Positions 4,783 to 28,806 are shown, counted from the first letter of the stretch. The stretch: DNA of 64,000 nt from Caldicoprobacterales bacterium (GCA_050949255.1 JBMNFJ010000016.1:12665-76664); one strand, 5' to 3'. Translations and numbers: made by a program. Notes: generated by a model not told the origin, from the letters alone.

Positions 4783-4840
4783 AAGAAAACCTGGTATGAC
4801 GGACCCCTAAAACTTTTTTAGGAGTAATACCGGTTTTCTT
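4783..4840 (+). repeat. Second extended hairpin in the same spacer
   Basis: AAGAAAACCtGGTAT pairs with ATACCGGTTTTCTT. The inner pair is CCTAAAA/TTTTAGG. Read directly. Confidence 0.6.
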
Positions 4841-5915: not shown

Positions 5916-5930
5916 AAAGGGGATACAGGC

Positions 5931-6710: not shown

Positions 6711-6712
6711 TT

Positions 6713-7915
6713 ATGTCCAAAATAACAATAAGAAATGTAAAAGCGATACTAACGGCGCCGGCTGGTATCAATCTGATAGTCGTGAAGGTAGAAACCAGCG
6801 AACCGGGACTATATGGGCTTGGATGTGCTACTTTTGCCTATAGAGAGAAGCTGGTAGCATCTATGGTAGAGGACTATTTGGATCCCCTGTTAAAGGGCAG
6901 GGATGTCTCTAACATAGAGGATCTATGGCATCTGATGAACAACAACTCCTACTGGAGAAACGGACCGGTAACCAACAATGCAATTTCAGGGGTCGATATG
7001 GCCTTATGGGATATCAAGGGTAAATTGGCCAATATGCCCCTCTATGATCTTTTAGGTGGTAAATCAAGGGAAGGCGTTGCAGTCTATCGTCATGCAGACG
7101 GTAAAGATCTTGATACCATTACTGAGAATGTTCAAAAATTTATGGATCAGAATATCAGGCACATAAGGATACAATGGGGCGGATACGGTGGAGATGCAAA
7201 AGCCCTTAACAAGCCGGCAGGTGCTCCGGATGGCATATACTATTGTCCTGATCAGTACATAAGGAATACCATAAAGCTCTTTGAGCATGTCCGAGGCAAG
7301 TTGGGAGACCAGGTTGAACTGTTGCACGATGTTCATGAAAGGATCCCGCCCATCGATGCAATCAGATTAGCTAAGGCTCTGGAACCTTATAGGCTGTTTT
7401 TCTTAGAGGACGTACTATCTCCTGAGCAGGGAGACTGGCTTAAAATATTGCGTCAACAGAGTTGCACTCCCATTGCAATAGGTGAGCTTTACAACAACCC
7501 CAAAGAGTGGGATTATTTAATATACAATAGACTTATAGATTTTATCAGGGTTCATATCAGTCAGATAGGCGGAATAACCCCTGCCAGAAAACTGGCCATC
7601 TTCTGTGAACAATTCGGCATAAGAACCGCCTGGCATGGTCCGGGAGACGTTTCACCGGTGGGTCATGCAGCCAACGTACATTTAGATCTGGTATCCCATA
7701 ACTTTGGTATTCAAGAGTGGGCCGGTATATCCGAGACCCTCCACGAAGTCTTCCCCGGCAGTCCGATTCTCAAAGACGGATATGTTTATGCCAATGATAA
7801 GCCGGGATTGGGAATTGACATTAATGAGGAATTAGCTGCTAAGTATCCATGTCAGACAAGGGTAACCCAATGGACCCAGACTAGATTGCCCGACGGAACT
7901 CTCTATACTCCTTAA
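6713..7915 (+). CDS. Enolase-superfamily sugar-acid dehydratase, D-mannonate dehydratase (ManD/RspA) subgroup
   Basis: N-terminus LIVVKVETSEPGLYGLGCATF...YWRNGPVTNNAISGVDMALWDIKGKLANMPLYDLLGG closely follows the ManD/RspA pattern. It starts 2 nt after the aldolase stop. Confidence 0.85.
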   Translation: MSKITIRNVKAILTAPAGINLIVVKVETSEPGLYGLGCATFAYREKLVASMVEDYLDPLLKGRDVSNIEDLWHLMNNNSYWRNGPVTNNAISGVDMALWDIKGKLANMPLYDLLGGKSREGVAVYRHADGKDLDTITENVQKFMDQNIRHIRIQWGGYGGDAKALNKPAGAPDGIYYCPDQYIRNTIKLFEHVRGKLGDQVELLHDVHERIPPIDAIRLAKALEPYRLFFLEDVLSPEQGDWLKILRQQSCTPIAIGELYNNPKEWDYLIYNRLIDFIRVHISQIGGITPARKLAIFCEQFGIRTAWHGPGDVSPVGHAANVHLDLVSHNFGIQEWAGISETLHEVFPGSPILKDGYVYANDKPGLGIDINEELAAKYPCQTRVTQWTQTRLPDGTLYTP

Positions 7916-7940
7916 TATTAATCTTGTGGAGGCGATGACT

Positions 7941-8936
7941 ATGAAAATTCTAGTCACAATGCCAAAATCTGGAGTCAGGGACGGTTTCTTTCCTTCCCGG
8001 GTAGTAAAAAAGTTAGAATCAATTGGAGAAGTTAAGTGGAATGAGACTTCGAATAATTTCAGCCCTGGGGAATTAAAGGAAAGGATTAAAGATGTAGAAG
8101 TCTGCATAGCTGGGTGGGGCAGTGCCAGATTTGATGAAGAAGTATTAAAAGATGCCAACAGGCTTAAGGTCATTGCCTATACCGGTGGATCCGTAGCCAA
8201 CATCGTAAGCGATTATCTCTATGATAAGGGTATTACCGTACTAAGCGGAAATGAAATCTATGCGGAATCGGTAGCTGAGGGTGTTCTCACTTATATCCTC
8301 ACCTCCTTGAGAAGGGTAATCTACTTTCAGAACCAGATCTTAGAGGGGAATTGGCCCCCGACGGAAGCATGGGACGAAGGAATTTTGGATCAAAGCATTG
8401 GGCTTATAGGATTTGGAGCGGTAGCAAGATATCTTGTAAGAATGCTGGAGCCCTTTAGGGTAAAGATATACGCCTATGACCCTTATGTGGACGATGAAGT
8501 CCTTCATAGCTATGGGGTGGAAAGGGCCAGCATGGATGAGATCTTTTCAAATTGCAAGATAATATCCGTCCATGCCGCCAAGACTCCTGAGACCTATCAT
8601 TTAGTAGGTAAGAAACACCTGGAATCCATCCAGGATGGGGGACTTTTTGTCAATACAGCCAGGGCCAGCATTGTTGATACTGAAGCCCTTATAGGAGAGC
8701 TTAAGAAAAACAGATTTAATGCGGTAATAGATGTATTTGACGAAGAACCACTACCACCGGATAGTCCATTAATCGGCTTACCCAACGTACTTTTGCAACC
8801 CCATCGGGGGGGACCAACAACCGATAGATGGGAAATTGTCACCTTAAGCCTAATAGAGGATGTCTTAAAGGTATTGGCCGGGGAGAAGGCCCGGCTGGAG
8901 ATAAAAAAAGAATATGCCATGGCCATGACCCAGTAG
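7941..8936 (+). CDS. D-isomer-specific 2-hydroxyacid dehydrogenase family protein
   Basis: GLIGFGAVARYL NAD-binding fold and LLQPHRGGPT catalytic-His region. ATG 7941 sits 8 nt after GGAGG (7928-7932). The ORF-track start at 7926 is too close to, or inside, the RBS. Confidence 0.8.
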   Translation: MKILVTMPKSGVRDGFFPSRVVKKLESIGEVKWNETSNNFSPGELKERIKDVEVCIAGWGSARFDEEVLKDANRLKVIAYTGGSVANIVSDYLYDKGITVLSGNEIYAESVAEGVLTYILTSLRRVIYFQNQILEGNWPPTEAWDEGILDQSIGLIGFGAVARYLVRMLEPFRVKIYAYDPYVDDEVLHSYGVERASMDEIFSNCKIISVHAAKTPETYHLVGKKHLESIQDGGLFVNTARASIVDTEALIGELKKNRFNAVIDVFDEEPLPPDSPLIGLPNVLLQPHRGGPTTDRWEIVTLSLIEDVLKVLAGEKARLEIKKEYAMAMTQ

Positions 8937-8972
8937 TTGGTTCATGGGATTTGTGTTTCCCGATCAGCAATT

Positions 8973-9023
8973 AAAAAGGAGCTGTAGCAAACTGGTTAAT
9001 CAGTCTGGCAACAGCTCCTTTTT
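8973..9023 (+). terminator. Rho-independent terminator after the sugar-acid cluster
   Basis: AAAAAGGAGCTGT ... ACAGCTCCTTTTT: 8-bp GC-containing stem core, large loop, flanking A/T runs. Confidence 0.65.
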
Positions 9024-9203
9024 ATATGGCTTCTATAACTGGGATAACCAGTATTAAAGGGTTAACATAACCAATTGTGTCAGTTCATAATCTTAGGTAA
9101 TGAGCTATTGACAAGCGGATGACTTCATTGATTTGGTTAAGAAAACTTGGCTTATGGAATATAGAAAAGCCTTAGTTTTCTCCAAAGTGATTTCGGAAGT
9201 AGG

Positions 9204-9272
9204 GAAGTTTCAAAAAATACATTACCATTAACCTTTGTTATTTAAAAACTATAATAGATTTTTTGAAACTTC
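9204..9272. repeat. Perfect 15-bp inverted repeat with a 39-nt spacer
   Basis: GAAGTTTCAAAAAAT (9204-9218) and ATTTTTTGAAACTTC (9258-9272), read directly. It lies in the spacer between convergent genes. Confidence 0.7.
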
Positions 9273-9388
9273 AGTATACAGTTACTCTTACGATGTTACA
9301 GAGCGGTCAATAGTCATTAACGGCATATGATTGACTGGCACAACGCGTTAATTTATGAAAGATTTATTCGCTAATAAGAAGTTCCCGC

Positions 9389-10456
9389 TCAGCAGAATCT
9401 TGGCATTGGATTTTGTTCATGACAAAGATTTATAACATGTATTTGTTGTTTAACCTGCTGGGGCGTAACTATAAGGGGTGTCCCTTCTGTCAGATGACCA
9501 TAGATGTTATCATAGAACCGTTTTACCGCATGGTTAAATACACCGGGATCCTCTACACTCCATGTTTCCTCGGCCCAGTATAGTGTTTCGCTGCAATACA
9601 TAGGCAGACCCTGTTCGTCTTTGAGGGGTGTCTTTATCAGTTCCCGCCTTGGAGCCACCCTTTCGTCATAATACCTCCACTTAATATGGGTCATACTTCC
9701 TTCAAGGCCGCCCCTAGTACCCTGGACCTTATAGGTATATGTAGGATAAGCATCACAGGAGGAAATCTCTATGTCTATCAACGGGCGGTCTGGAGCTGTA
9801 AGGATTAACTTTACATAGTCCTCTGCATCCCCGAAGGTGTTGGCCCTATCCATTTTGCAAAATACCTGGGGCATACCGTCATAGTAATCGAGGAGATTAA
9901 GGGCTTGATCCAAAGGGTGTGGGCCTGTGTTATAGAGGCTGCCGGCAACGAATTCCTGACAACATTGCCAGTCCCACCTTCTGGCGAAGCCGTTGAAGTT
10001 AATGCTTATCTGTACGATCCTGCCAAGGATTCCGGAGTTTATTACATCCTTGACCTTTTCAAAGTAAGGCGCAAACCTGGACTGCTGAAAGATAGCAAAC
10101 ATCCGCTTATTTGCCTTTGCTGCATCTATCATTGCCTGGACCTCTTCCGGGGTCCTGGCACAGGGCTTTTCCGTTAGAACGTTGAACCCATTATTTAATA
10201 AGTCAATAGTGGTGTGAGCATGCATATGGCTGAAGGATGCGTTAACTACGAGGTCAATGTCGGATCTTCCAAAGAGTTCCTGGTAGTTTTCATAGGTGTC
10301 ACACCCATATTCCTCTGCTGCCCTGTTTCGCCGATCCTCCAATGCCTCTACAACTGCTACCACTTTAAATCTATCCGGATCCGTTAAGAAGTATTTGCCG
10401 TGTATATCCCTCCCGCTACGTCCCTGTCCAATGATAGCCAGATTTAGCTTTTTCAT
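9389..10456 (-). CDS. Gfo/Idh/MocA-family NAD(P)-dependent oxidoreductase
   Basis: MKKLNLAIIGQGRSGRD Rossmann N-terminus. Start CAT is at 10454-10456 with GGGAGG about 10 nt upstream on the minus strand. The longer ORF-track start (10549) has no RBS. Confidence 0.85.
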   Translation of the reverse strand: MKKLNLAIIGQGRSGRDIHGKYFLTDPDRFKVVAVVEALEDRRNRAAEEYGCDTYENYQELFGRSDIDLVVNASFSHMHAHTTIDLLNNGFNVLTEKPCARTPEEVQAMIDAAKANKRMFAIFQQSRFAPYFEKVKDVINSGILGRIVQISINFNGFARRWDWQCCQEFVAGSLYNTGPHPLDQALNLLDYYDGMPQVFCKMDRANTFGDAEDYVKLILTAPDRPLIDIEISSCDAYPTYTYKVQGTRGGLEGSMTHIKWRYYDERVAPRRELIKTPLKDEQGLPMYCSETLYWAEETWSVEDPGVFNHAVKRFYDNIYGHLTEGTPLIVTPQQVKQQIHVINLCHEQNPMPRFC

Positions 10457-10650
10457 ATATCGATAACCTCCCTTGGATATGTTTAGTAAATAATGGTCCC
10501 CTTCATTTGTATGTAGCGTTGATGTTAACAATATGATATATGTCCCCATAGGTTATTGTCAATTATTTTCAGAATATGATATGATTGTATTACTGGGATT
10601 CAGCCTTTAGCGTTGAATCAGGCAATTCCCGGTGTGATTTGAAAGAGAAA

Positions 10651-10677: not shown

Positions 10678-10741
10678 GCGGACATGTTATTAGATATGGT
10701 TCCTGTTGCAAATTTACGATAATTAAGTCGAGGTGAGAGCG

Positions 10742-12019
10742 ATGATTAGACTTAGCATTACTTCAGATGATGGCCAAGGTCTTCATGAAAAAAGCATTAG
10801 GGAAGCCTTGGACCAATCTTTGCAAGAGCAAAGGGCAAGCTTAAGAAAGGTTTTATTAATCCCACCGGATTTAACCAGGGCACATTCCGGGGCTGGGGAT
10901 ATTACCAGGATGTACTACCAGCTTCTTAAGGATGTTTGTAAGGTGGATATTATGCCCGCATTGGGGACCCATATGCCTATGACTCATGATGAAATAGATC
11001 TGTTTTTTGGGGAGGAAATTCCAAAAGAATCTTTCATAGTACACAACTGGAGGACGGATGTAGTCAAAGTCGGTCAGGTGCCTGGTCAGTATATATCTGA
11101 AATATCCGAAGGGCTTGTGAATGAGCCCATAGATGTGGAGATCAATAAGAGGCTGCTTGATAAAAGCTACGACCTAATCATCTCCATAGGGCAGGTAGTG
11201 CCCCATGAAGTGGTGGGCATGGCCAACTACAGCAAGAATATATTTGTGGGCTGCGGTGGTATGGACATAATAAACAAGAGCCATATGCTAGGTGCGATTT
11301 ACGGAATGGAGAAGATCATGGGAAGGGATCATTCTCCGGTTCGAAAGGTATTTGACTATTGCCAGGAACACTTTACCAAGGAGATACCCCTCATGTATGT
11401 ATTGACGGTGACCACTGCCAAAGAAGACAAGGTGGATATCCATGGATTGTTTATTGGCAACGATAGATCCCTGTTTGAGGAGGCTGTAAAGCTAAGCCAG
11501 GAAAAGAATCTGGAATATGTGGACAGACCCTTTAAAAAGGTCGTGGTTTACTTGGATGGAAGGGAATTTAAGAGTACCTGGCTGGGAAATAAATCCGTCT
11601 ACAGGACCCGGATGGCCATTGAGGACGGTGGGCAGCTTATCGTCCTGGCTCCCGGAGTCAGGCAGTTTGGCGAAGACCAAGAAAACGACAGACTAATACG
11701 AAAGTATGGTTATGCAGGCAGGTTAAAGGTATTGGAACTGTTTAAGGAGAATCAGGATCTTCAGGAAAATCAATCCGTGGCAGCCCATCTTATCCATGGA
11801 TCATCCGATGACAGGTTCTCAATCACCTATGCTCCGGGCCATCTGACCCGGGAAGAGGTGGAAGAGGTCAACTACAACTATATGCCCTTAAAAGAAGCTT
11901 TAGTAAAATATGATCCGAAAAAATTAAAGGATGGATACAATATTCTTGAAGACGGAGAGGAGATCTTTTATATAAGTAATCCGGCTCTGGGGTTATGGGC
12001 CGATAGAAGCAAATTTTGA
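10742..12019 (+). CDS. LarA-superfamily (DUF2088-type) protein; putative nickel-pincer-cofactor-dependent 2-hydroxyacid/sugar-acid epimerase
   Basis: ATG 10742 follows GAGGTGAG. Segments PPDLTRAHS, ALGTHMPMTHDE and PHEVVGMANYSKNIFVGCGGMDIINKSH parallel LarA SSDHTRPVPS, ATGFHRPSTHEE and SH174-x9-K184-x15-H200, with identical spacing. The LarA sequence is from memory. Confidence 0.65.
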   Translation: MIRLSITSDDGQGLHEKSIREALDQSLQEQRASLRKVLLIPPDLTRAHSGAGDITRMYYQLLKDVCKVDIMPALGTHMPMTHDEIDLFFGEEIPKESFIVHNWRTDVVKVGQVPGQYISEISEGLVNEPIDVEINKRLLDKSYDLIISIGQVVPHEVVGMANYSKNIFVGCGGMDIINKSHMLGAIYGMEKIMGRDHSPVRKVFDYCQEHFTKEIPLMYVLTVTTAKEDKVDIHGLFIGNDRSLFEEAVKLSQEKNLEYVDRPFKKVVVYLDGREFKSTWLGNKSVYRTRMAIEDGGQLIVLAPGVRQFGEDQENDRLIRKYGYAGRLKVLELFKENQDLQENQSVAAHLIHGSSDDRFSITYAPGHLTREEVEEVNYNYMPLKEALVKYDPKKLKDGYNILEDGEEIFYISNPALGLWADRSKF

Positions 12020-12032: not shown

Positions 12033-13559
12033 GTGAAAAGGCTCAATAGGCGGCTACTTGAGGAGGGGTTGAACCTTCCCAGGGATGTAGAAGTTGGCAA
12101 TCTTGAAACGATGCCAGAGCGGATTATACAGTTTGGTGAGGGTAACTTTTTAAGGGCTTTCATCGACTGGATGGTAGACGAGATGAACAGGCAAGGCCTA
12201 TTTCTGGGTAGAACTATTGTAGTTCAACCTATACCCCATGGCCTGGTAGATGCCCTAAATCAACAGGATGGCCTTTATACCCTGCTCCTTAGGGGATTAA
12301 TTGAGGGCAAGATAAAGGAAGAAAAACGGATAATTACATCCGTCAGCAGGGGCATCAACCCCTATGAGGATTGGCAGGGGTTCTTAAAATGCGCTGCCCA
12401 ACCGGAGTTACGGTTTATGGTATCTAATACCACAGAGGCAGGGATCGCATACGTAAAAGAGGACATGCCCATAGACACTTGCCCTGAATCATTTCCGGCA
12501 AAGGTAACTTCCTTTTTGTATGCAAGGTTTAAGGCCTTTGACGGATCTTCGGACAGAGGTATGATAATCCTTCCCTGCGAACTCATCGACAGGAATGGGG
12601 ATTCCCTGAAGGAGATTGTATTAAGGTACGCAGAAGAGTGGGCACTGGGTAGCGAATTCAGTAATTGGATCAAAGAACATAACCATTTCTTAAACACCTT
12701 GGTGGACCGCATTGTAACCGGCTATCCCGGGGATGAAATAGAGGAACTGAATAGGGAGTTGGGTTACGAGGACAGGCTGCTTGATACGGGTGAGCCTTTT
12801 CACCTTTGGGTCATCGAAGGGGATAAAAGCCTTTCCAAGGAGATACCTTTGACCGAGGCAGGCCTTAACGTGGTTTGGACGGATGACCTAACGCCCTATA
12901 GGACAAGAAAGGTCAGGATTTTAAACGGAACCCATACCATGACTGCACTTATGGCATATCTATATGGTCTCGATACAGTCAGGCAATGCATAGAGGATGA
13001 TGTGGTACTATCCTATATGAAAAAGGGATTGTACGAAGAAATATTACCTATTCTCGACTTTCCCCAGGAGGATAAGCAGGGGTTCGCAGATGCTGTACTG
13101 GAACGATTTAAAAATCCTTTTATAGAACATAACCTACTTAGCATCTCCTTGAACTCCGTATCCAAATGGAAGGTAAGAGTTCTGCCTTCACTGCTGGAAA
13201 ACCTTAGTTTAATGGATAGTCTGCCAGAAGTATTGACCTTTTCTCTGGCTTCTTTGTTGATCTTCTATAGGGGGGCTCAAATTCAGGATGAGGCTCTTAT
13301 AGGGGAAAGGATGGGCAACCAGTATAGGATTCAAGACGATAGGGATGTGCTGGAATTTTTTCAAGACTTATGGACCGACTATGACAAAGGCGGGGACCTG
13401 GTTCTATTATGCACAAAAGCCCTGGGGCAAAAGGATTTTTGGGATATGGATCTCAATGAGCTGCCCGGCATGACCCAAAAGGTTAGTGAGTATCTGGAAA
13501 GGATTTTGAACATGGGTATGGAAAATACCGTCAAGGATCTTGTTGGAATCCAAGGATAA
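12033..13559 (+). CDS. uxaB: Tagaturonate reductase (altronate oxidoreductase), mannitol dehydrogenase family
   Basis: ERIIQFGEGNFLRAFIDWMVDEMN and LNQQDGLYTLLLRG match the UxaB N-terminus. GTG start lies 8 nt after GAGGGGG and 13 nt after the previous stop. Confidence 0.9.
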   Translation: MKRLNRRLLEEGLNLPRDVEVGNLETMPERIIQFGEGNFLRAFIDWMVDEMNRQGLFLGRTIVVQPIPHGLVDALNQQDGLYTLLLRGLIEGKIKEEKRIITSVSRGINPYEDWQGFLKCAAQPELRFMVSNTTEAGIAYVKEDMPIDTCPESFPAKVTSFLYARFKAFDGSSDRGMIILPCELIDRNGDSLKEIVLRYAEEWALGSEFSNWIKEHNHFLNTLVDRIVTGYPGDEIEELNRELGYEDRLLDTGEPFHLWVIEGDKSLSKEIPLTEAGLNVVWTDDLTPYRTRKVRILNGTHTMTALMAYLYGLDTVRQCIEDDVVLSYMKKGLYEEILPILDFPQEDKQGFADAVLERFKNPFIEHNLLSISLNSVSKWKVRVLPSLLENLSLMDSLPEVLTFSLASLLIFYRGAQIQDEALIGERMGNQYRIQDDRDVLEFFQDLWTDYDKGGDLVLLCTKALGQKDFWDMDLNELPGMTQKVSEYLERILNMGMENTVKDLVGIQG

Positions 13560-13619
13560 TGAATATATAAGAGGGCGGTAAAATGGTCCCTTATTCGAAT
13601 TAATACGTAGGGGAGTGGG

Positions 13620-15140
13620 ATGGGTAGCATGCCGAAAAATCGCATATTAAGGATTCACAAAAGTGACAGTGTAGCAGTTGTTCTTAGACCTATAAATAAA
13701 GGACAGGTATTGGATATAGGCAATAGTAAAATCAAGGCAACAGAAGATATCGGGGTAGGACATAAGATGGCTGTCCGAGATATAGCAAAGGGAGAGGATA
13801 TCATCAAATATGGGGCGTCCATTGGACACGCCACCATGCCTATAAGGATGGGTAGCCTGGTGCATACCCATAATTTAACTACCAATTTATCCGGTCTGCT
13901 TGATTACACCTATGAACCCCAATTCCAAACCTTACCGGAATCTGAAAACGATAATATTCCTACTTTTAGTGGATATTTGAGGCCTAATGGGGACGTAGGG
14001 ATAAGGAATGAAGTATGGATAATAAACACCGTCGGATGTGTAAACAAGGTTACCGAAAGGTTGACTCATTCTGCCAGGCAGCATTTTAAAGGTCGAAAGG
14101 TAGATGGCATACACTTTTTTTCTCATCCCTATGGATGTTCCCAGTTGGGAGACGATCATAAAAATACCCAAAACATTCTGGCGGGTTTAGTAGACCATCC
14201 CAACGCTGGTGGAGTGTTGGTGTTGGGATTGGGATGTGAAAACAACAACATAGAAGAATTTAAAAAGGTATTAAAAAAGCGGGGCTCTATTGATACAAAC
14301 AGGATTAAGTTTTTAAACACCCAGGATGTAGAGGACGAACAAGAAGTAGGTATGGAAATTCTCGAAGATCTGGTTTCCTACGCTGAAGGCTTTTTTAGGG
14401 AGGAAATCCCCATATCCAAACTTAAGATAGGGTTAAAATGCGGAGGTTCCGATGCTTTTTCCGGAATCACCGGTAATCCGTTATTGGGTGCTTTTTCTGA
14501 TGCCCTGGTATCTCAGGGGGGTACCACCATATTGACAGAGGTACCCGAGATGTTTGGGGCAGAAACCATATTGATGAATCGTTGTGTAACAAAAGAGGTA
14601 TTTGAAAAATGCGTTACAATGATAAACAATTTTAAAGAGTACTTTATCCGCCACGATCAGGTTATATACGAGAACCCTTCCCCGGGAAACAAAGAAGGGG
14701 GTATCACCACTCTGGAGGAGAAGTCCTTAGGCTGCACTCAGAAGGGTGGGACCGGGCAAGTAGTGGATGTAGTGGGATATGGAGAACCGGTGACCGTACC
14801 CGGTCTTAACCTTTTGGACGGCCCGGGAAACGATATTGTGGCGGTAACAGCCTTGGTGGCCAGCGGTGCGCATATGGTGTTATTTACCACGGGAAGGGGG
14901 ACACCCCTGGGTGGGCCGGTACCCACAGTCAAGGTTTCTACCAATAGTGAGCTGGCCAAAAAGAAGAAGCATTGGATTGATTTTGACGCTGGTATACTCT
15001 TGGAAGATGGGGAGATGGGAAGTGTATCAAGGGAGTTTTTCCAGTACATTATCGATGTAGCTTCCGGTAGAATACTGGCTAAGAATGAGGAGCAGGATTT
15101 TCGAGAGATTGCTATATTTAAGGATGGGGTTACACTATGA
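13620..15140 (+). CDS. uxaA: Altronate dehydratase
   Basis: SAF-like N-terminus (IHKSDSVAVVL...GHKMA...IIKYGASIGHAT...VHTHN) plus a large UxaA/GarD C-terminal domain. The alternative start ATG 13629 is equally plausible. Confidence 0.9.
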   Translation: MGSMPKNRILRIHKSDSVAVVLRPINKGQVLDIGNSKIKATEDIGVGHKMAVRDIAKGEDIIKYGASIGHATMPIRMGSLVHTHNLTTNLSGLLDYTYEPQFQTLPESENDNIPTFSGYLRPNGDVGIRNEVWIINTVGCVNKVTERLTHSARQHFKGRKVDGIHFFSHPYGCSQLGDDHKNTQNILAGLVDHPNAGGVLVLGLGCENNNIEEFKKVLKKRGSIDTNRIKFLNTQDVEDEQEVGMEILEDLVSYAEGFFREEIPISKLKIGLKCGGSDAFSGITGNPLLGAFSDALVSQGGTTILTEVPEMFGAETILMNRCVTKEVFEKCVTMINNFKEYFIRHDQVIYENPSPGNKEGGITTLEEKSLGCTQKGGTGQVVDVVGYGEPVTVPGLNLLDGPGNDIVAVTALVASGAHMVLFTTGRGTPLGGPVPTVKVSTNSELAKKKKHWIDFDAGILLEDGEMGSVSREFFQYIIDVASGRILAKNEEQDFREIAIFKDGVTL

Positions 15141-15161
15141 TTTCAAAGGGGGGACTTAATC

Positions 15162-16403
15162 ATGGAGCAATTAACTTCCAGGGAGAGGGTGAGGATATCT
15201 CTCAACCATCAGGAGCCTGACAGATTACCAATTGATTTTGGTGCCATGAGGTCGACGGGTATAAATGCCATTGCCTATAATAGGCTAAAGAAGTATTTAG
15301 GGATGAAAAATACCGAAACAAAGGTCTACGATATATATCAGCAACTGGCAGAACCGGAAGAGGCAATAATGAAGATTATGGGTGCAGATGTTGTCCAGCT
15401 GCATAGATACAGGCCGGCTTTTGGGATTGACATTGCTAACTGGAAGCCGGGAAAGCTGATGGATGGGTCCGACTGTTTAGTCCCCAGGGATTTTAATCCT
15501 GTAGAAAACTCCAGAGGCGATCTGGATGTTATTAAAGATGATAAGGTCATTGCCAGAATGCCCAAAGGAGGATATTATTTTGATCCCATGTACCACCCAT
15601 ATGCAAATGTCAAAAGTATGGGGGATATAGATAAGATACCCGTTTCTGAGATTACCCATGAGGAGCTCTCCTACTTAAGGGAAAAGGCCAAGGAACTATA
15701 TGAGAAAACGGATTATGCCATCCTGGGTAGCTTTGGCGGCAATATTTTGGAAGCCGGCCAATCGGATTGGGGATATGAACGTTTTTTTATAGAGATGGCT
15801 CTTAACCCCGATATGGTCCACTACTATCTCGAGAGGAAAATCCAGGTTTACCTTAGGGATTTGGAAAAATATCTTAATGCCGTAGGGGAGTATATTGATG
15901 TTATTCAATTTGGGGATGATCTCGGAACCCAGGAAAACACTCAAATATCGATTCAGATGTATAGGGATATGATCAAGCCGTACCATACAAGGTTGTATCA
16001 ATATGTTAGAAATAATTTTCCCAATGTTAAAGTCTTTTTACATTCCTGTGGGGCTATCTATGATTTAATCCCAGATCTTATAGACGCAGGAGTTGAGATT
16101 TTAAACCCAGTTCAATTGTCTGCACGCAATATGGATCCAATTAAGTTAAAAAGGGAATTTGGCAACCATCTAACCTTTTGGGGCGGTGGATGCGATACCC
16201 AAACCACCTTGACCTTTGGGAGCCTTGAGGATATTAGAAATGAGGTAGAAGAGCTCATAGGGATATTTGCTCCCGGAGGCGGATTTGTGTTTACCCAGGT
16301 ACATAACATCCAGGCCGATATATCCCCTGAAAAAATTATGGAGTTATACAACACTGCAAATAGGGTAGGACGCCAGGTATACGCCACTGCACGGCAAATC
16401 TAA
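15162..16403 (+). CDS. Uroporphyrinogen decarboxylase (URO-D)/MtaA-CmuA-family protein, function unknown
   Basis: 413 aa. N-terminus SRERVRISLNHQEPDRLPIDFG is typical of non-HemE URO-D-like proteins, and there is an LHSCG motif. It starts 21 nt after uxaA, with RBS AAGGGGGG. Confidence 0.7.
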   Translation: MEQLTSRERVRISLNHQEPDRLPIDFGAMRSTGINAIAYNRLKKYLGMKNTETKVYDIYQQLAEPEEAIMKIMGADVVQLHRYRPAFGIDIANWKPGKLMDGSDCLVPRDFNPVENSRGDLDVIKDDKVIARMPKGGYYFDPMYHPYANVKSMGDIDKIPVSEITHEELSYLREKAKELYEKTDYAILGSFGGNILEAGQSDWGYERFFIEMALNPDMVHYYLERKIQVYLRDLEKYLNAVGEYIDVIQFGDDLGTQENTQISIQMYRDMIKPYHTRLYQYVRNNFPNVKVFLHSCGAIYDLIPDLIDAGVEILNPVQLSARNMDPIKLKREFGNHLTFWGGGCDTQTTLTFGSLEDIRNEVEELIGIFAPGGGFVFTQVHNIQADISPEKIMELYNTANRVGRQVYATARQI

Positions 16404-16449
16404 AAGGGGATTATTATAGAGTATCTTGGTATTAGGGAGGAGAATTAAA

Positions 16450-17721
16450 ATGATAAATACTTACAAATGGAACACTTGGGCAACTAATGAACTTCAATCC
16501 CCTGAATTTTACAGGGATTCAGTCCATGGTGAAGACGTATTAAAGATCGCGTCAGGTGGAAAGTATTCTTATGGTAAGTGGTACTGCGATATTGATGATA
16601 TAGAGGAAAATACCGCCTATAGGTTTAAAGTGAAATATTACAGCGAAAATGTACCGATTGAAAAAACCAGTATAAGCGCTGTATTTACCTGGATCAAAGA
16701 GGATGGGGAATGGTTGGAACGGGGGTATATAGATGAAATAGCCATCTTGGAGGATGGATGGAGGAACTTGAGTAGGATTATTAAAGCACCCCGGGATGCA
16801 GCTTCCCTAAAGATTGAGTTAGGCTTGAGATGGCCGGGATCTAATGGTTATGTACTATGGAAGGAACCCTGTCTGGAAAGAGTAGATGATCCGGGCAGAA
16901 GGATTGTACGGGTGGCTACTACCTATATCGACCCCCGCATAGATACAGACACGGATATGGAGAGAAGGCTCGCCAGGATCTGCAAGGTTGTTGACGAAGC
17001 AGGTAACCAGGGAGCAGATATCATCTGCCTGAGCGAAACCATAAATGAAAGACTATTACCCCTGAATCTTGAGGAGAGGGCTCTACCCATTGATTGCTCC
17101 TTTACCCGGAAGATGAAGGAGAAGGCAAGGCAGTACAAGACTTATATAATATATTGCTTTTATGAAAGAGAAGATAGCTATACCTACAACACGGCGGTTT
17201 TGGTCAATAGAGAAGGCGAGATTGTTGGAAAATACCGGAAAACCCATCTACCCATGACCGAGGCGGAGGAAGGGGTAATACCGGGGACCGAATATCCTGT
17301 TTTTGATACGGATTTTGGGAAAATTGGAATACTTATATGCTGGGACCAGATGTTTCCCGAGCCGTCGAAGATATTGGCATTAAAGGGAGCAGAAATAATC
17401 TTTGTACCCACAGCCGGTGACGGACCGATACATACAGCAGCCCGTGCAGCGGAAAATGGCATATATATGGTGATATCCGGCATAGACAGGCAGGAGAATT
17501 CGCCCTGGATGCCCAGTAGGATCATTAACCCCATGGGGGAGGTTATAGGCCAGGTCGAGGAGAAAGACGAGGGCGTCTGTGTTACGGAGATAGATCTAAA
17601 CAAGAAATTCTACGCATATTGGCTATCTGCAGGTCCCTGTTACAGCGAGCCAAGAAATATTTATTTAAAAGAGCGTATGAATGGGACATATGATGAGGTT
17701 GTCCACGATAAGTACCAATAA
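16450..17721 (+). CDS. Carbon-nitrogen hydrolase (nitrilase superfamily) with an N-terminal extension of about 160 aa
   Basis: E-K-C triad context is ADIICLSE, YRKTHLP, GILICWDQMFPE. ATG 16450 follows GGGAGGAG. The N-terminal region has no recognisable catalytic motif and looks beta-sandwich/CBM-like. Confidence 0.75.
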   Translation: MINTYKWNTWATNELQSPEFYRDSVHGEDVLKIASGGKYSYGKWYCDIDDIEENTAYRFKVKYYSENVPIEKTSISAVFTWIKEDGEWLERGYIDEIAILEDGWRNLSRIIKAPRDAASLKIELGLRWPGSNGYVLWKEPCLERVDDPGRRIVRVATTYIDPRIDTDTDMERRLARICKVVDEAGNQGADIICLSETINERLLPLNLEERALPIDCSFTRKMKEKARQYKTYIIYCFYEREDSYTYNTAVLVNREGEIVGKYRKTHLPMTEAEEGVIPGTEYPVFDTDFGKIGILICWDQMFPEPSKILALKGAEIIFVPTAGDGPIHTAARAAENGIYMVISGIDRQENSPWMPSRIINPMGEVIGQVEEKDEGVCVTEIDLNKKFYAYWLSAGPCYSEPRNIYLKERMNGTYDEVVHDKYQ

Positions 17722-17820
17722 GATAGCCATAGAGTAACGCTCAATTTGCGCCTATAAAATAGAATAAATGTGTGGCGATAATAGCCGTGTATTTTACTAA
17801 GGGAGGAGCAGTCTTGTCAA

Positions 17821-18855
17821 ATGAATAGTATATTGCGTAAACGAAAGCCCGATTTCACCAATCTCCAAAAGGTATTGGAGTGTAAAAAGCCGGATAGACC
17901 GACCCTCTTCGAATTATTCATGAACGATTCCCTATACGAGATATTGACAGGTAGAAAAAGACCGAATAGGGAGGACGAACTTGAGCATTTAAAATTCGTT
18001 GTGGATGCCTTTGAAGCTGCTGGATATGATTATGCCACTACTCATGGATCAAAGTTTATGTTCATCGAGGGGCAGGAGAAACACAAGGAGACTATTTCCC
18101 TGAATGCCCGCGAGATAATATTTGATGAGAAGAGCTTTAGTGATTTTAAATGGGAGGATCCGGAAGACTATGACTATTCCAAGCTGGAGAAGATAGGGGA
18201 TTATCTCCCTCATGGGATGAAACTTGCAGTCATGGGACCGGGCGGCGTGTTGGAGAATGTAATATCCTTGACAGGCTATGACAATCTCTGCTACATGCTG
18301 TATGATGACCCCGAGCTATTAAAACAGGTATTTGACAATGTGGGACAAAGGCTGGTTAAATATTATGAAATAGCTGCTCAACACGATAGCGTTGGGCTGA
18401 TAATATCCAACGATGATTGGGGTTTTAACACCCAAACCTTCTTACCCCCCTGGGCTATGAGTGAATATGTTTACCCCTGGCACAAGAAAATAGTGGATAC
18501 GGCCCATAGGTATAATAAGCCTGTTATATTGCATTCATGTGGATATTATTTAGATACCATGGAGGTATTGATCACTGATCTTAATTACGATGGCAAACAT
18601 TCCTTTGAAGATAATATCCTCAGGGTAGAGGACTCATATGACAGGTGGAAGGGCAGAATAGCTATTCTGGGCGGTATGGATGTTAACTTTGTAATTGAGG
18701 CCTCGGAGGAGGATATAAAGAGAAGATCCCGTAATATGATAGAGAAGAGCCTGGACTGTGGCGGGTATGCCTTGGGCACAGGAAACAGTGTCCCTGAGTA
18801 TATACCCGTAGAAAAATATCTGGCCATGATTTCAGTTATCCATGATGTATATTAG
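17821..18855 (+). CDS. Second, divergent URO-D/MtaA-CmuA-family protein
   Basis: 344 aa, with KPDRPTLFELFMND N-terminus, an ILHSCG motif and GGMD. RBS is GGGAGGAG. Confidence 0.65.
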   Translation: MNSILRKRKPDFTNLQKVLECKKPDRPTLFELFMNDSLYEILTGRKRPNREDELEHLKFVVDAFEAAGYDYATTHGSKFMFIEGQEKHKETISLNAREIIFDEKSFSDFKWEDPEDYDYSKLEKIGDYLPHGMKLAVMGPGGVLENVISLTGYDNLCYMLYDDPELLKQVFDNVGQRLVKYYEIAAQHDSVGLIISNDDWGFNTQTFLPPWAMSEYVYPWHKKIVDTAHRYNKPVILHSCGYYLDTMEVLITDLNYDGKHSFEDNILRVEDSYDRWKGRIAILGGMDVNFVIEASEEDIKRRSRNMIEKSLDCGGYALGTGNSVPEYIPVEKYLAMISVIHDVY

Positions 18856-18964
18856 GAATAAACAACTCCAACCATAATATTCATCATCTATAGATAGATT
18901 TATTTTCCGTATTGTTTATCCATAGATGAGGATGGGACTTTCTTATAGATTTGCCGAGAATACT

Positions 18965-19013
18965 CATGAATTCATTCGTGAGATGAATCGACAAAGAATT
19001 GAATGAATTCATG
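18965..19013. promoter_or_regulatory. Two copies of the palindrome ATGAATTCAT inside a 13-bp inverted repeat; candidate operator
   Basis: CATGAATTCATTC (18965-18977) and GAATGAATTCATG (19001-19013). A third half-site ATGAATC lies between them. The element sits immediately upstream of a TATAAT at 19043-19048. Confidence 0.45.
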
Positions 19014-19265
19014 AAATACTAGTTCTTTAATATAAAATGGTATATAATTAAGGCAGAACAACACCCGGCACAAGGGGGTGAAATCTATGGAATCTTCGCC
19101 CATAGGTATATTCTGCGGTAGCTCTAAGTCCTTATTGCCTAGTGAAAAACCCGGCTAGACTCAGACAGCCGACCCGGGGTAGAAGCGATTTGGACACCCC
19201 TTGGCTGGAAGCGACAGAATCTCGTGACTTTAGTCATGGGAGGATCAATGAAAGGAGTATGTATC

Positions 19266-20228
19266 ATGGACGTTTTAGAACGAATAGGTAAAATCGGTTT
19301 GGTTCCGGTGGTTGTTTTGGAAAAGGCTTCAGATGGTCCGCCAGTTGCTGCGGCTCTTTGTGACGGCGGGATTCCCATTATGGAGATCACCATGCGTACA
19401 GATGCCGGAATTGATGCCATCAAAGCGGTGAAGGCGTCGAATCCCGAGGTTTTGGTTGGGGCAGGAACGGTTCTTACGCTGGATAAGTGTAAGGAATCGG
19501 TTGATGCCGGGGCGGAGTTCATTGTAAGCCCGGGATTTAATCCCAAAATTGTCGATTGGTGCGTAAAAAATGACGTTCCGATAACTCCCGGATGCGTTAC
19601 CCCGACCGAAATCGAAATGGCGTTGGATAAGGGCCTTCGGGTTCTTAAGTATTTCCCGGCAGGCGTCTATGGCGGCATAAAGGGTTGCACTGCTTTGCAG
19701 GGTCCCTATAAGTCCATGGGTCTTAAGTTTATTCCTACCGGCGGAATTAGTTTGAAAAATCTCGATGAATATTCCGATAAAGAATTCATCCACGCCATTG
19801 GTGGCGGTTGGTTGAGTAATCCGAAGGATATTGCGTCGGGCAACTTTGATGCGATTCGTGAGACGGCAAAGCTATCGATAGCTCAGCTCTTGGGCTTCGA
19901 GTTTGCCCATGTTGGAATCAACACGGCTGATGATGACGATTCTAAAAAAGTCGCCGAGGAATTTGATGCGGTATTCGGTTTTGGTGTTAAATATGGCAAC
20001 AGTTCAAACTTTGCCGGAAGTGGCATTGAAGTCATGAAAGGCGCGGGTCTTGGTAAAAATGGGCATCTTGCAGTAAAGACCAACAATGTTGGACGCGCCA
20101 TCCACTATCTCGAGAGCAAGGGCTTTACCGTTGACATGGAATCTGCAAAATATAAGGGCGACACCATGGTTGCCGTATACCTCAAAGAAGAGATCGGCGG
20201 ATTTGCGGTTCACCTGCTTCAAAAATAA
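19266..20228 (+). CDS. KDPG/KHG aldolase fused to a C-terminal VOC (glyoxalase-like) domain
   Basis: ATG 19266 lies 8 nt after AAAGGAG. The N-terminal ~205 aa is Eda-like (GLVPVVVL, IMEITMRT, LKYFPA, IPTGGI). The C-terminal ~110 aa (FAHVGINT...GHLAVKTNNVGRAIHYLESKGF...GGFAVHLLQ) follows the VOC pattern. Confidence 0.75.
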   Translation: MDVLERIGKIGLVPVVVLEKASDGPPVAAALCDGGIPIMEITMRTDAGIDAIKAVKASNPEVLVGAGTVLTLDKCKESVDAGAEFIVSPGFNPKIVDWCVKNDVPITPGCVTPTEIEMALDKGLRVLKYFPAGVYGGIKGCTALQGPYKSMGLKFIPTGGISLKNLDEYSDKEFIHAIGGGWLSNPKDIASGNFDAIRETAKLSIAQLLGFEFAHVGINTADDDDSKKVAEEFDAVFGFGVKYGNSSNFAGSGIEVMKGAGLGKNGHLAVKTNNVGRAIHYLESKGFTVDMESAKYKGDTMVAVYLKEEIGGFAVHLLQK

Positions 20229-20358
20229 AGTATCTAGTCATGATTTCGGTTATTTATGATGTGTATTAGGAAGGGATCAGGTGCCCAACGCAAAGTTATC
20301 AAGTTGGGATAATGACCAGATTATACATAAAATCCCGTCCATGTCTATAGAATTTAGT

Positions 20359-20382
20359 AAGAGGCCTATGGCCTCTTTTTTT
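20359..20382 (+). terminator. Rho-independent terminator
   Basis: AAGAGGCC-tat-GGCCTCTT followed by TTTTT. Confidence 0.85.
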
Positions 20383-20583
20383 CTGCCGGTCTGTGGGAGA
20401 GGTTGATCGCCTGCTCTATTAGTTTTGTTCCGCATATATGGTGTAATAATATTCACTCATAACCCCCAGATAATTGTAATTTCTATACAATTTATGATAA
20501 AATAAAATCACGGGCTGAATGATGATATCCGTAACGAGACTATACCAACAGTAGGGGAAACATGAAAGTGGGGGCTTTGTTTC

Positions 20584-23500
20584 ATGAGTTTAAGGTTGAT
20601 CTACGGCAGATCCGGAACTGGGAAGAGCCATTTTTGCATGCAGGAAATTCGGAATATTTTGGAAGAACAATTAAGGGGACAGCCCAAAAGGCCACTTATC
20701 CTTCTTGTGCCCGAGCAGTATTCCATGCAGGCAGAAAGAGCTCTGGTCCAAACAGCACCAAGGGGAGGGGCCATAGATGCTCAGGTTCTTAGTTTTAGAC
20801 GGATGGCATACAGGGTATTCAATGAGGTAGGTGGATTTACCAGAAGGCATATAAGTCCTTCGGGCAGGTCCATGCTCATTTATCGTATAATTCAGGAGCT
20901 AAAGGATAATCTCAATTATTTTGGGAAGGTGGCAGGACAATCCGGTTTCGTAAGTACCATATCGGAACTTATCTCTGAACTAAAGAGATATAATATCACC
21001 CCTGATTCCATTGAAGAGCTGCACACTAGGATTGAAGACGAAGCATTAAAGGAAAAACTCAAAGAGATCGGTGCCATATACCGCAGGTTTGAGGAGACAT
21101 TACATTTAAGATACATAGACGCTGACGATGATCTTACCCTAATGGCTGAAAAACTGCCTGAATCTACTCAGTTTGATGGGGCTGAGATTTGGATCGATGA
21201 ATTTTCAGGGTTTACCCCTCAAGAGTATAGCGTTATAGAGGAGCTGCTTAAGAAATCCAAACGGGTCAATGTATGCCTATGTACCGACTATCTGTTCGAT
21301 GAGATACCCTTTTCTAGCGGAGATGTTTTTACTCCGGTACGAAATACAGCCTTGAAACTAAGGGAGCTGGCGCAAAAAAATCAAATTGCTATTGAGAAGG
21401 CCGTAACCTTCAAAGAGGAGCCCTTCTACAGGTATAAGGACAGTCCGGAACTGGCCCATCTGGAGGGCTACTTTTTTACCTATCCCTATAAAAGATATAC
21501 TAAACCAACCAAGGATATAGAAATATTTACTGCCAGCAATATTTATACCGAGATAGAAGAGGCAGCGCGAAGCATTCAATCCCTTTGCATGGAAAAGGGC
21601 ATCAGATTTAAGGATATAGCGGTGGTCACGAGGAATTTGGCAGAATACGAAGGCCTTATATCAGCCATATTTCCTCAATACTCCATTCCCTTTTTCATAG
21701 ACAGGAAAAAGCCCGTTGACAGCCATCCCCTGGTTACTCTGGTATTATCCATGATGGATATCTTCGTGCATAATTGGTCCTATGAGTCGGTGTTCAGGTA
21801 TTTAAAGACAGGTCTGACCGGGATAGCCAGGGAGGAAATAGACATCCTGGAGAACTATGTCCTGGCAAATGGCATAAGGGGGAACCAATGGACAAGGGAG
21901 GAGGACTGGGATTACAGGCCGGATTCGGGGTTTTATTCAGGAGAAATGACGGAGCGGGAGCTTTCCATAATAGACAGAGTGAACCGTACCCGCCGGAATG
22001 TTCTAAAGCCCCTTATGGATTTTCGAAAGAAAACCAGGGGACGCACCCCAGTACGGGATATGTGCAGTGCGGTCTATGAGTTTTTATGTGAATTAGAAAT
22101 ACCTGAGTTAATAGAAGAACGCATTGATGACTTAAGGGAAGCAGGCTCCCTAAGCCTGGCCAACGAGTATGGACAGATCTGGAATATTGTAATGGAAGTA
22201 CTGGATCAGACGGTAGAAGCCATGGGAGAGGAAAGCATGGGGATCGAGAGATTCCGGGAAGTTTTGTCCATAGGCTTTAGCGAGCATAAGATCGGCCTTA
22301 TTCCTCCTTCTCTTGATCAGGTGTTGGTAGGAAGTGTAGAGAGATCCAGGAGCCATGAGATTAAGGCCTTATTTATTCTGGGAGTGAATGATGGGGTCTT
22401 TCCGGCACCACCGGGAGAAGAAGGGATACTTTCCGACGGGGATAGGAATGTCCTTCGGAATATGGGGGTGGAACTGGCCCAGGACACCAGGACCCGGGCA
22501 TATGAGGAACAGTTTATAATCTATTCTACCCTATCCACCACCGGAGGCAGCCTATTTATAAGTTATCCCATTGCAGATCATGAAGGCAGGACCATGAGAC
22601 CTTCCATCATAATCTCAAGGCTAAAAAAGCTCTTTCCCAGGATAAGGGAGCGCAACAACCTGTCGGAGACAAACAAACCGGAGGAAATATTCAATATGGT
22701 CTCTGCACCGCTTCCCACCTTCAATCAACTTATCTCTGCTGTAAGGCAGGGTATATTGGGTCATGGGGTTAATCCCATGTGGAAACATGTAAGAGATTGG
22801 TATGTAAGCCAAGATTCCTGGAAGGAAAGGGTAGACAGGGTAGTAGAGTGGATGGACTATACCAATCAAGTAGAAAAGGTGGGAGCAAAAAGGGCGGCTA
22901 TGCTCTACGGATCGCCTATGTATTCCAGCATATCAAGGCTGGAGCAATATGCATCCTGTCCGTTTTCCTACTACTTAAGGTATGGGCTCGGGGCCAGGGA
23001 GAGAAGGGTTTATAGGCTTACACCACCGGACATGGGCAGCTTTATGCACGATTGTATAGATGCATTCTCTTCCAGGATAAAGGATGCCGGTATAGGCTGG
23101 GAAGATTTTGATAGGGAATGGTGCCGTCAGGAGATTTCTATCATCGTGGATGAGCTGTTGGAAAAGAGGATGGGTTGGCTGATAAATAATAGTGATCGCT
23201 ATAGATATTTAGTCGTTCGCTTAAAGCGGGTTGTAGCCAGGGCTATTTGGGTCATAAGGGAGCATATTATAAGAAGTGGCTTTGAGCCCATAGGATATGA
23301 GGTGTCCTTTGGCGATTCTAAAAATGATATGTTTCCCCCCATCGTTCTTGAACTACCTTCCGGTGAGCAGGTTCACCTGGTTGGCAGAATCGACAGGGTC
23401 GATGCCCTTAAGGCTGATGAGGGGACCTACATCCGGATCATTGATTATAAATCAGGCAGCAGATCCTTTAAGTTGTCCGATGTCTATTATGGCCTTCAAA

Positions 23501-28765: not shown

Positions 28766-28806
28766 AGAAAGAAAGATCCTAGTTTATGGGATCTTTCTTT
28801 TTTATT
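28766..28806. terminator. Bidirectional rho-independent terminator between convergent genes
   Basis: AGAAAGAAAGATCC-loop-GGATCTTTCTTT, flanked by an A-run and a T-run. It overlaps the last codons of the minus-strand gene. Confidence 0.8.

Follow-up and report, generated by a model that had tools for sequence, protein, structure and literature searches.

Two divergent URO-D-superfamily proteins and a two-domain C-N hydrolase encoded beside a sugar-acid operon in a Caldicoprobacterales lineage

The UroD superfamily holds O-, S- and halide-demethylating, corrinoid-dependent methyltransferase I (MT-I) enzymes, which act with or without zinc (PMC10418091, PMC13222342). The known MT-I enzymes use aromatic methyl ethers or halomethanes and are encoded in clusters with a corrinoid protein, a methyltransferase II (MT-II) and an activator. 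The heme enzyme HemE and MtaA, the methylcobamide:coenzyme M (CoM) methyltransferase of Methanosarcina (PDB 4AY7), share the same fold. Here we analyse three genes from a Caldicoprobacterales bacterium (GCA_050949255.1), located in a stretch of 64,000 nucleotides (JBMNFJ010000016.1:12665-76664), called the window below, whose first letter is position 1. Directly behind uxaA, on the + strand, they encode a URO-D-superfamily protein of 413 amino acids (aa) (15162..16403; Pfam PF01208, TIM barrel), a two-domain C-N hydrolase of 423 aa (16450..17721; Pfam PF00795, Glu-Lys-Cys) and a second, MtaA-sized URO-D-superfamily protein of 344 aa (17821..18855; Pfam PF01208). A preliminary description had assigned this trio to a hexuronate operon as its accessory module. 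The reading that we favour, with a probability of roughly 0.4, is that the genes encode enzymes of the methyl- or alkyl-transferase type and an amidase that take substituents off sugars, and that they were recruited beside a sugar-acid operon. Each of the three proteins belongs to a large, widespread subfamily found in many kinds of carbohydrate-utilisation loci, and the association of the trio with uxaB and uxaA is a lineage-specific juxtaposition rather than a conserved uronate module.

Both URO-D-like proteins are assigned to the superfamily by their Pfam scores, 70.9 bits for the 413-aa protein (residues 150-401) and 71.5 bits for the 344-aa protein (residues 139-342) at a PF01208 cut-off of 23.9 bits; the match covers just the C-terminal two thirds of each. 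For the 413-aa protein the fold agrees: its AlphaFold2 model (predicted local distance difference test, pLDDT, 93; predicted template modelling score, pTM, 0.91) is a UroD-type triosephosphate isomerase (TIM) barrel, with a beta-rich insertion predicted at about residues 85-150. Foldseek matched this model to HemE (2inf, E=3.6e-14), to MtaA (4ay7, E=7e-13) and then to MetE, at about 16-18% identity. The profile of the 344-aa family had MtaA as its best match (4ay7, E=6.9e-7). A comparison of the two families with each other by hhalign joined just their C-terminal 250 residues, with a probability of 99.3. Similarity in sequence to any solved HemE or MtaA is marginal for both proteins. Against the MtaA/CmuA models TIGR01463 (cut-off 235.4 bits) and PRK06252 (cut-off 244 bits), the 413-aa protein scored 31.7 and 41.6 bits and the 344-aa protein 36.7 and 49.9 bits. 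The family assignment first given to the pair holds at the level of the URO-D superfamily; the cut-offs of the MtaA family are missed by far. These cut-offs, together with the third zinc ligand discussed below, rule out bona fide members of MtaA/CmuA.

Public annotation names both proteins 'uroporphyrinogen decarboxylase', which would make them ordinary hemE paralogs of the heme pathway. No HemE model of NCBIfam matched them within an E value of 0.01, HemE chains in the PDB were reached at E=0.08-0.5 by sequence, and identity to HemE structures is about 12-18%. The N-terminal, substrate-binding half, where HemE has its active-site Asp and the 'MRQAGR' arginines, could not be aligned to HemE by hhalign, a MAFFT alignment of the 413-aa N-terminus with E. 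coli HemE was uninformative, and the 64-kb window holds no heme genes. The NCBIfam and PDB sequence searches and the Foldseek identities rule out plain hemE paralogs, and we leave this explanation next to no probability.

The motif LHSCG is present in both proteins. The corresponding family profiles, 'flHScG' and 'iLHScG', align to the zinc-binding 'LHICG' of MtaA (4AY7), while E. coli HemE has 'FTKGG' at this position, that is, Lys and Gly instead of His and Cys. The alignment of the 413-aa family shows no variation at H294 and H381 and conservation of at least 90% at C296; that of the 344-aa family shows none at H238 and N322 and again conservation of at least 90% at C240. The third zinc ligand of MtaA, the Cys of 'APGCGI', corresponds to the invariant Asn322 in the profile alignment of the 344-aa family and to the invariant His381 of the 413-aa family when the registers of the two families and of HemE are combined; an alternative local register of the hidden Markov model (HMM) would place it on Gly373 of the 413-aa protein. 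The position of H381 is also that of the catalytic His of HemE ('NLGHGI'), and it is the one occupied by Asn in the 344-aa family. We propose H294-x-C296 plus H381 as a candidate metal site of the 413-aa protein, and both URO-D-like proteins may bind a metal. The argument made earlier for a zinc motif of the MtaA type is half right, because the His-x-Cys is homologous to that of MtaA and distinct from HemE, yet the site differs at the third ligand and is incomplete as a zinc site of that type. In the 413-aa family Arg30, within 'MRSTG', is likewise invariant.

The families are large. More than 7,900 homologs of the 413-aa protein were found; the members examined belong to Mahella, Clostridium and Dethiobacter (63-79% identity), and further matches listed are annotated as Bacilli, Izimaplasma and Oligoflexales. 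For the 344-aa protein more than 4,000 homologs were found, with identities of 54-83%, Treponema, Oscillospiraceae and Armatimonadota among them.

To see what accompanies the 413-aa family, we compared nine independent contexts, the window included, in which the homologs are 63-79% identical, and considered genes within 10 kb. A sugar ATP-binding cassette (ABC) transporter occurs in seven of the nine, an adjacent ROK regulator in four, and additional URO-D paralogs in five. Glycoside hydrolases (GH) are found in three contexts (GH38 twice, GH29, GH2) and a DUF4185/F5_F8_type_C protein in a fourth, giving four out of nine. A B12-binding protein is present in two, those of Dethiobacter (two copies) and Clostridium estertheticum. 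The window alone has uxaA/uxaB or the C-N hydrolase near this family. The locus of a 79%-identical homolog comprises, in this order, a ribose-type ABC transporter, a URO-D protein, ROK, PfkB, a member of the mannitol-dehydrogenase family, D-lyxose isomerase and a further URO-D protein. A corrinoid protein also lies directly downstream of a 36%-identical homolog. A scan of metagenomes with the 413-aa protein returned only three loci.

Several of these loci are worth describing for themselves. At Dethiobacter alkaliphilus L005 (8355-20487) two almost identical MtaC-type corrinoid proteins flank a 65%-identical homolog. The locus also encodes a ribose-type ABC transporter, a GFO oxidoreductase, two TIM barrels resembling xylose isomerase and a 429-aa protein that has no Pfam match, and it has the look of a system that handles an imported sugar or cyclitol with the help of a corrinoid. 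C. estertheticum (L101, 1-11227) and C. sediminicola (L003, 7548-18526) carry clusters in which four URO-D paralogs are interspersed with a ribose-type ABC transporter, LacI and ROK and almost no other catabolic enzyme, and the C. estertheticum cluster ends beside a small B12-binding protein. GH38 alpha-mannosidase lies directly beside 413-aa homologs in two unrelated contigs (L006/L007 and L098-L100); with the D-lyxose/mannose isomerase near the 79%-identical homolog, a mannose theme recurs.

For the 344-aa family two contexts were examined. A 73%-identical one from another Caldicoprobacterales metagenome-assembled genome (MAG) is surrounded by a CUT1 ABC transporter, ADP-ribosylglycohydrolase, LacI, a nucleoside hydrolase, two more URO-D-like genes and a ribokinase-type kinase. 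In Oscillospiraceae, a GntR/LacI-type regulator and solute-binding proteins adjoin. At L095/L096, from a Caldicoprobacterales MAG (12824-21032), the order is solute-binding protein, permeases, inosine-uridine nucleoside hydrolase, a URO-D-like protein of 371 aa, a weak URO-D-like one of 365 aa, ribokinase-type PfkB and ADP-ribosylglycohydrolase. It is pure speculation that this nucleoside- or ribose-type locus fits the handling of a modified ribose such as 2'-O-methyl ribose.

The URO-D-like proteins could also be HemE-like, cofactor-independent decarboxylases, or other TIM-barrel enzymes that do not transfer methyl groups, acting on a sugar-derived acid. The first Foldseek match of the 413-aa model is HemE (TM score 0.74 on the target), H381 aligns with the catalytic His of 'NLGHGI', and most contexts lack a corrinoid protein. 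Against this, sequence comparison reaches HemE at no better than E of about 0.1 (3e-4 when a profile is used); His-x-Cys is conserved in both families and lacking in HemE; the HemE His is replaced by Asn in the 344-aa family; and most homolog loci contain no acid-sugar genes. We consider this explanation improbable. Methyl (alkyl) transfer is the most economical reading, because it accounts together for the sugar neighbourhoods, the groups of paralogs, the His-x-Cys motif, the occasional MtaC-type neighbours and the superfamily background. The proteins would then be TIM-barrel alkyl (methyl) transferases rather than decarboxylases, and their most likely role would be to take O-methyl groups off sugars in an oxygen-independent way. 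We would assign the substrate side to the 413-aa protein, which is enlarged in the manner of CdmB and other MT-I enzymes, and see a second transferase in the MtaA-sized 344-aa protein; the corrinoid protein would be encoded elsewhere in this genome, or would not be needed.

The middle gene encodes a clear member of the nitrilase superfamily (CN_hydrolase PF00795, 144.6 bits, cut-off 23.2). The intact Glu-Lys-Cys triad noticed at first sight is indeed there, E196, K264 and C297 being invariant across 26 homologs, and all the motifs quoted at that time (CLSE, YRKTHL and LICWD here, LHSCG in the URO-D-like proteins) fall on invariant or nearly invariant alignment columns. HMM searches and structure prediction, which the preliminary description had suggested, confirmed the URO-D and CN_hydrolase families by Pfam and by AlphaFold2 models of the 413-aa protein and of the hydrolase. 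The closest solved relatives are the Pyrococcus PH0642 amidase, N-carbamoylputrescine amidohydrolase and Nit2, among other amidases and carbamoylases (beta-ureidopropionase, D-carbamoylase). Ten NCBIfam models were matched, all of them far under their cut-offs (the best, AguB TIGR03381, with 115.1 bits at a cut-off of 410), and no equivalog was reached.

The hydrolase model (pLDDT 91.5) contains, at residues 1-146, a confidently predicted all-beta domain with the form of a beta-sandwich, which we found in none of the solved homologs recovered by Foldseek. An exhaustive search with this N-terminal domain alone gave 107 representatives, most of them of about 410-470 aa, like the two-domain family itself. 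Pfam analysis of ten larger or atypical matches placed the domain directly before a CN_hydrolase domain in seven; the larger architectures include fusions with M14 peptidase, PKD and NHL domains, and the two matches that do not conform are of low complexity or in multiple stretches. Independent occurrence of the domain, for instance on glycosidases, was considered and rejected, as among the larger architectures checked CN_hydrolase follows wherever Pfam found any domain there. The domain of one homolog is recognised as CBM_4_9. From these relationships we infer an enzyme of the amidase or decarbamoylase type, not a true nitrilase, fused to a beta-sandwich resembling carbohydrate-binding modules (CBM) of families 4/9. 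It would recognise a carbohydrate through the CBM-like domain and take an amide, N-acyl or carbamoyl substituent off a carbohydrate-derived substrate. On visual inspection, the alignment shows hydrophobic leaders resembling signal peptides at the N terminus of relatives from Acidobacteriota, Planctomycetota and Verrucomicrobiota, and none in Firmicutes versions, that of the window included. In Planctomycetota and Victivallaceae MAGs the two-domain hydrolase occurs as two or three paralogs in tandem (L059, 700-5256; L065, 8504-11080).

Its genomic contexts are diverse. Among 80 loci with homologs of 29-44% identity, a set that excludes close relatives of the source genome, a URO-D homolog lies within 10 kb in three, a ManD-like dehydratase in three and UxaA in one. 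Closer homologs (46-50%) are found beside CUT1 sugar transporters and GH4, or in a housekeeping region. A conserved partner of the hydrolase was looked for in a Pfam census of 114 flanking genes from 74 loci and was rejected, since no family turned up more than four times. At one of the 80 loci (L058, Bryobacteraceae, 7279-8031) a corrinoid-binding protein, similar to that of Dethiobacter at E=1e-58, lies 2 kb upstream of the hydrolase homolog. In a plasmid collection tblastn gave two distant matches only (27-29% identity), one of them in an unannotated record.

A number of observations weigh against methyl-transferase-type enzymes acting with an amidase on sugar substituents. The third zinc ligand of MtaA is not kept, with His in its place in the 413-aa family and Asn in the 344-aa family, the scores against the MtaA/CmuA models reach about one seventh of the cut-offs, and Foldseek puts HemE marginally ahead of MtaA for the 413-aa model. 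Seven of the nine contexts of the 413-aa family have no B12-binding gene within 10 kb, and homologs at L008/L009 stand in a housekeeping context. The homolog of the hydrolase in a housekeeping region (L090) and the Pfam census, in which no family accounted for more than four of the 114 flanking genes, point the same way. The 64 kb contain no corrinoid protein, reductive activator, pterin methyltransferase or cobalamin riboswitch, and our literature search found no paper that characterises either URO-D subfamily or the two-domain amidase.

These absences were looked for in several ways. With an MtaC-type protein from the neighbourhood of a homolog as query, tblastn gave nothing in the window below E=1.8. 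Pfam searches of essentially all window open reading frames (ORFs) of at least 150 aa identified no B12-binding protein, corrinoid activator, pterin methyltransferase or heme gene, and Rfam found no riboswitch, of the cobalamin or any other class, in the 64 kb. That heme, corrinoid and pterin genes are missing nearby, as had been noted, holds for the entire window by tblastn and Pfam.

The genes themselves and their arrangement are well supported. The co-directional string begins with a LarA homolog (10733..12019, +; Pfam Lar_N), which matches NCBIfam NF052594 'nickel-dependent putative hexonate epimerase' with 668.9 bits (cut-off 500) and has a promoter-like site upstream at 10556-10585. Tagaturonate reductase, uxaB (12033..13559, +; NCBIfam NF002969, 665.9 bits, cut-off 359), and uxaA of the altronate dehydratase family follow (13620..15140, +; Pfam SAF, GD_AH_second and GD_AH_C, 341 bits), the latter being an altronate hydrolase/dehydratase in public annotation. 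Gaps of 21, 46 and 99 nt precede the 413-aa ORF, the hydrolase and the 344-aa ORF, and a strong Shine-Dalgarno sequence stands before every trio gene; the ribosome-binding site of the 413-aa ORF is AAAGGGGGGA, within the 21-nt gap after uxaA, and that of the hydrolase is AGGGAGGAG, ahead of ATG 16450. This ATG is the most likely start of the hydrolase (423 aa), in agreement with public gene calls and with the junction 16403/16450 given at the outset; the mechanical ORF begins at TTG 16426 and has 431 aa. A terminator scan found none within the trio, and the intergenic RNA folds no better than shuffled controls. The position of the trio directly after uxaA, with a 21-nt gap and no hairpin, was thus described correctly at the outset as to ORFs, spacing and lack of terminators.

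The trio order recurs as consecutive protein accessions in at least three NCBI assemblies (MAGs), on contigs of up to 2.6 Mb, so that the locus is not an assembly artefact. Several of the matching sequences, judged by their accession prefixes, we take to derive from biogas-reactor metagenomes. The trio genes are genuine, and they are probably co-transcribed with the larA-like gene, uxaB and uxaA in this Caldicoprobacterales lineage (Clostridia).

The label of a hexuronate operon is uncertain as well: a uxaC-type isomerase was not seen among the annotated ORFs of 1-64000, and a LarA-type epimerase comes first. Because uxaC is missing and this epimerase leads, the operon may take in hexonate rather than hexuronate. 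The predicted larA-like/uxaB/uxaA unit may then convert a hexonate, for example a C2 epimer of altronate, rather than take up galacturonate.

The preliminary description had proposed that the trio pre-processes a modified uronic or aldonic acid, removing a methyl ether or ester or an amide before the product enters UxaB/UxaA. Tight co-directional packing right behind uxaA with no terminator is in keeping with this, as are a gene order stable across several MAGs of the lineage and the sugar-acid island of 1-20 kb (ManD-like dehydratase, a kinase of the 2-keto-3-deoxygluconate type, two Eda, 2-hydroxyacid dehydrogenase). So are the ManD-like dehydratases beside hydrolase homologs in 3/80 loci, the single case of proximity to UxaA, and the invariant Arg30, whose 'MRSTG' resembles, on manual comparison, the carboxylate-binding 'MRQAGR' of HemE. 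However, the trio-uxaBA order was seen only in assemblies at least 90% identical, all of the Caldicoprobacterales MAG lineage. With the window excluded, a UxaA homolog lies within 10 kb in none of eight contexts of the 413-aa family, none of two of the 344-aa family and one of 83 of the hydrolase family. The 63-79% homologs, which probably have the same function, are in mannose, N-glycan, nucleoside or unknown-sugar loci, and Pfam scans of window ORFs found no uronate transporter, uxaC or alpha-glucuronidase near the trio. By the criterion of the preliminary description itself, lack of synteny with uronate genes in relatives, the available genomes, as far as they go, refute the hypothesis of an accessory uronate module: neither linkage to uxaA and uxaB nor co-occurrence of the trio order with them is kept beyond the closely related lineage. 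We regard this pre-processing model as unlikely.

A further explanation is that the three genes are functionally unrelated neighbours that share no substrate logic, the 344-aa gene or the entire trio having promoters of their own. The gene families have their own, mostly non-overlapping distributions, hydrolase homologs are found alone in housekeeping regions, and ahead of the 344-aa gene stand the 99-nt gap and, at 17665-17694, a weak match to a promoter-like site. On the other side, URO-D paralogs occur together in five of nine contexts, a URO-D homolog is within 5 kb of the hydrolase in three of 80 loci, and the order is stable within the lineage. This explanation, partly compatible with substituent-removing enzymes recruited beside the operon, has an appreciable chance of being right, although we think it rather unlikely.

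Downstream of the 344-aa gene lies an AT-rich hairpin (18881..18932, +; inverted repeat of 16 nt, 88% complementary). It is present in the minimum-free-energy fold, yet the regional z-score is just -1.37; the transcription unit may have a weak end here. Next comes, at 18964..19014 (no strand assigned), a perfect inverted repeat of 14 nt, TCATGAATTCATTC / GAATGAATTCATGA, whose arms are 23 nt apart. It overlaps a promoter-like site at 19011-19038 and looks like a repressor operator in the 410-nt gap between the 344-aa gene and eda. Because this operator-like repeat overlaps the promoter-like site, eda probably has its own regulated promoter. The gene encodes a 2-keto-3-deoxy-6-phosphogluconate/2-keto-4-hydroxyglutarate (KDPG/KHG) aldolase of 334 aa (19224..20228, +; Pfam Aldolase 192 bits, TIGR01182 214.6 bits), whose aldolase domain covers residues 20-212 and is followed by a C-terminal extension of about 110 aa that has no Pfam match. 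The terminator after it, at 20359-20377, is the only strong one in the region.

Upstream, positions 1-10549 form a dense sugar-acid island that contains neither transporter nor regulator. It encodes 6-phosphogluconate dehydrogenase, an FGGY kinase, Eda (the first of the window, 237 aa, at 2785-3498), a PfkB kinase, a short-chain dehydrogenase/reductase, an HpcH/HpaI aldolase, a ManD-like dehydratase (415 bits, just below cut-offs of 550/430), a D-2-hydroxyacid dehydrogenase and a divergent GFO/IDH/MocA oxidoreductase. Further along, 30113-37490 carries a CUT1 ABC transporter with a DUF3502 binding protein, GH2 and a LacI regulator. A DUF6062 protein (28779-29582, - strand) and a stand-alone CBM9_2 protein of 217 aa (42910-43563, + strand) have no obvious adjoining partner.

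As a hexuronate accessory module is not upheld, the finding adds little to uronate biology, and the trio proteins are additional members of uncharacterised subfamilies in two well-known superfamilies, not a new kind of system. What matters more is that carbohydrate-utilisation loci of anaerobes repeatedly contain members of two very large, well-conserved URO-D subfamilies (63-83% identity among examined homologs across orders and phyla) and of a CBM-fused amidase family. We know of no settled route by which anaerobes dispose of sugar methyl ethers such as 4-O-methyl-glucuronate, 2-O-methyl-fucose or -xylose, 3-O-methyl-mannose and 2'-O-methyl-ribose. In the uronate pre-processing model, xylan-derived 4-O-methyl-glucuronate would be a plausible substrate. 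Our literature search on its catabolism or demethylation found no paper that mentions the compound, only oxygen-dependent demethylation routes. For sugars and nucleosides, the retrieved literature describes P450 or dioxygenase routes only, all dependent on oxygen (PMC6292453, PMC12709175). This raises the question whether the abundant URO-D subfamilies are an anaerobic counterpart of these O-demethylases; the conserved His-x-Cys and the occasional corrinoid-protein neighbours make them testable candidates for that role. In its boldest form, the proposal would be that both subfamilies, which count thousands of members among anaerobic Firmicutes, Spirochaetes and other groups, are the missing oxygen-independent sugar O-demethylases, metal-dependent enzymes that pass the methyl group of O-methylated sugars to a corrinoid. 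In this organism the CBM-fused amidase would be their partner, the substrate would be a substituted hexuronate or hexonate (xylan-derived 4-O-methyl-glucuronate, for instance), and the product would be delivered to LarA-like/UxaB/UxaA. We hold this full version to be doubtful and put it forward as a long shot.

Compared with the described systems, the proteins resemble each one in part. With MtaA both share the superfamily and His-x-Cys at the zinc-ligand position, and the 344-aa protein shares its size and, through its profile, has it as best solved sequence match; identity is about 16%, the N-terminal halves are unrelated by sequence, and the third ligand, Cys in MtaA, is His in the 413-aa protein and Asn in the 344-aa protein. 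A cognate corrinoid protein nearby, characteristic of MtaA/CmuA systems, is missing from the window and present in two of nine contexts of 413-aa homologs. To our knowledge, CoM metabolism is not expected in this Clostridia lineage. HemE, the best structural match of the 413-aa model, with H381 at its active-site His, differs by the low identity (12-18%) and by having no His-x-Cys, and the window has two divergent copies in a sugar-acid locus free of heme genes.

The corrinoid MT-I enzymes (OdmB/VdmB/MtvB/MtoB; CdmB, PDB 9RUI; PMC13222342) belong to the same superfamily, remove methyl groups without oxygen and, like some homologs of the window proteins, are accompanied by corrinoid proteins. 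As described (PMC13222342), CdmB (429 aa) has a barrel enlarged by extensions among its first strands, and the 413-aa model is enlarged likewise; in sequence, CdmB is touched weakly and only by the profile of the 344-aa family (E=0.007). In contrast to the aromatic or halomethane substrates of the known enzymes and to their gene clusters, of which the window has none, homologs of the window proteins are surrounded by sugar transporters, regulators and glycosidases. The C-N hydrolase has the catalytic domain and Glu-Lys-Cys of PH0642 amidase, AguB/CPA (N-carbamoylputrescine amidohydrolase), Nit2 omega-amidase and beta-ureidopropionase (25-32% identity, Foldseek E about 1e-22), and differs from the solved ones by its extra N-terminal CBM4/9-like beta-sandwich. 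Finally, marine bacteria possess cytochrome P450 sugar O-demethylases that act on 6-O-methyl-galactose (PMC6292453). They are unrelated to the URO-D-like proteins in fold and chemistry and depend on oxygen, but a functional analogy is possible: the URO-D-like proteins might likewise take a methyl ether off a sugar before ordinary catabolism begins.

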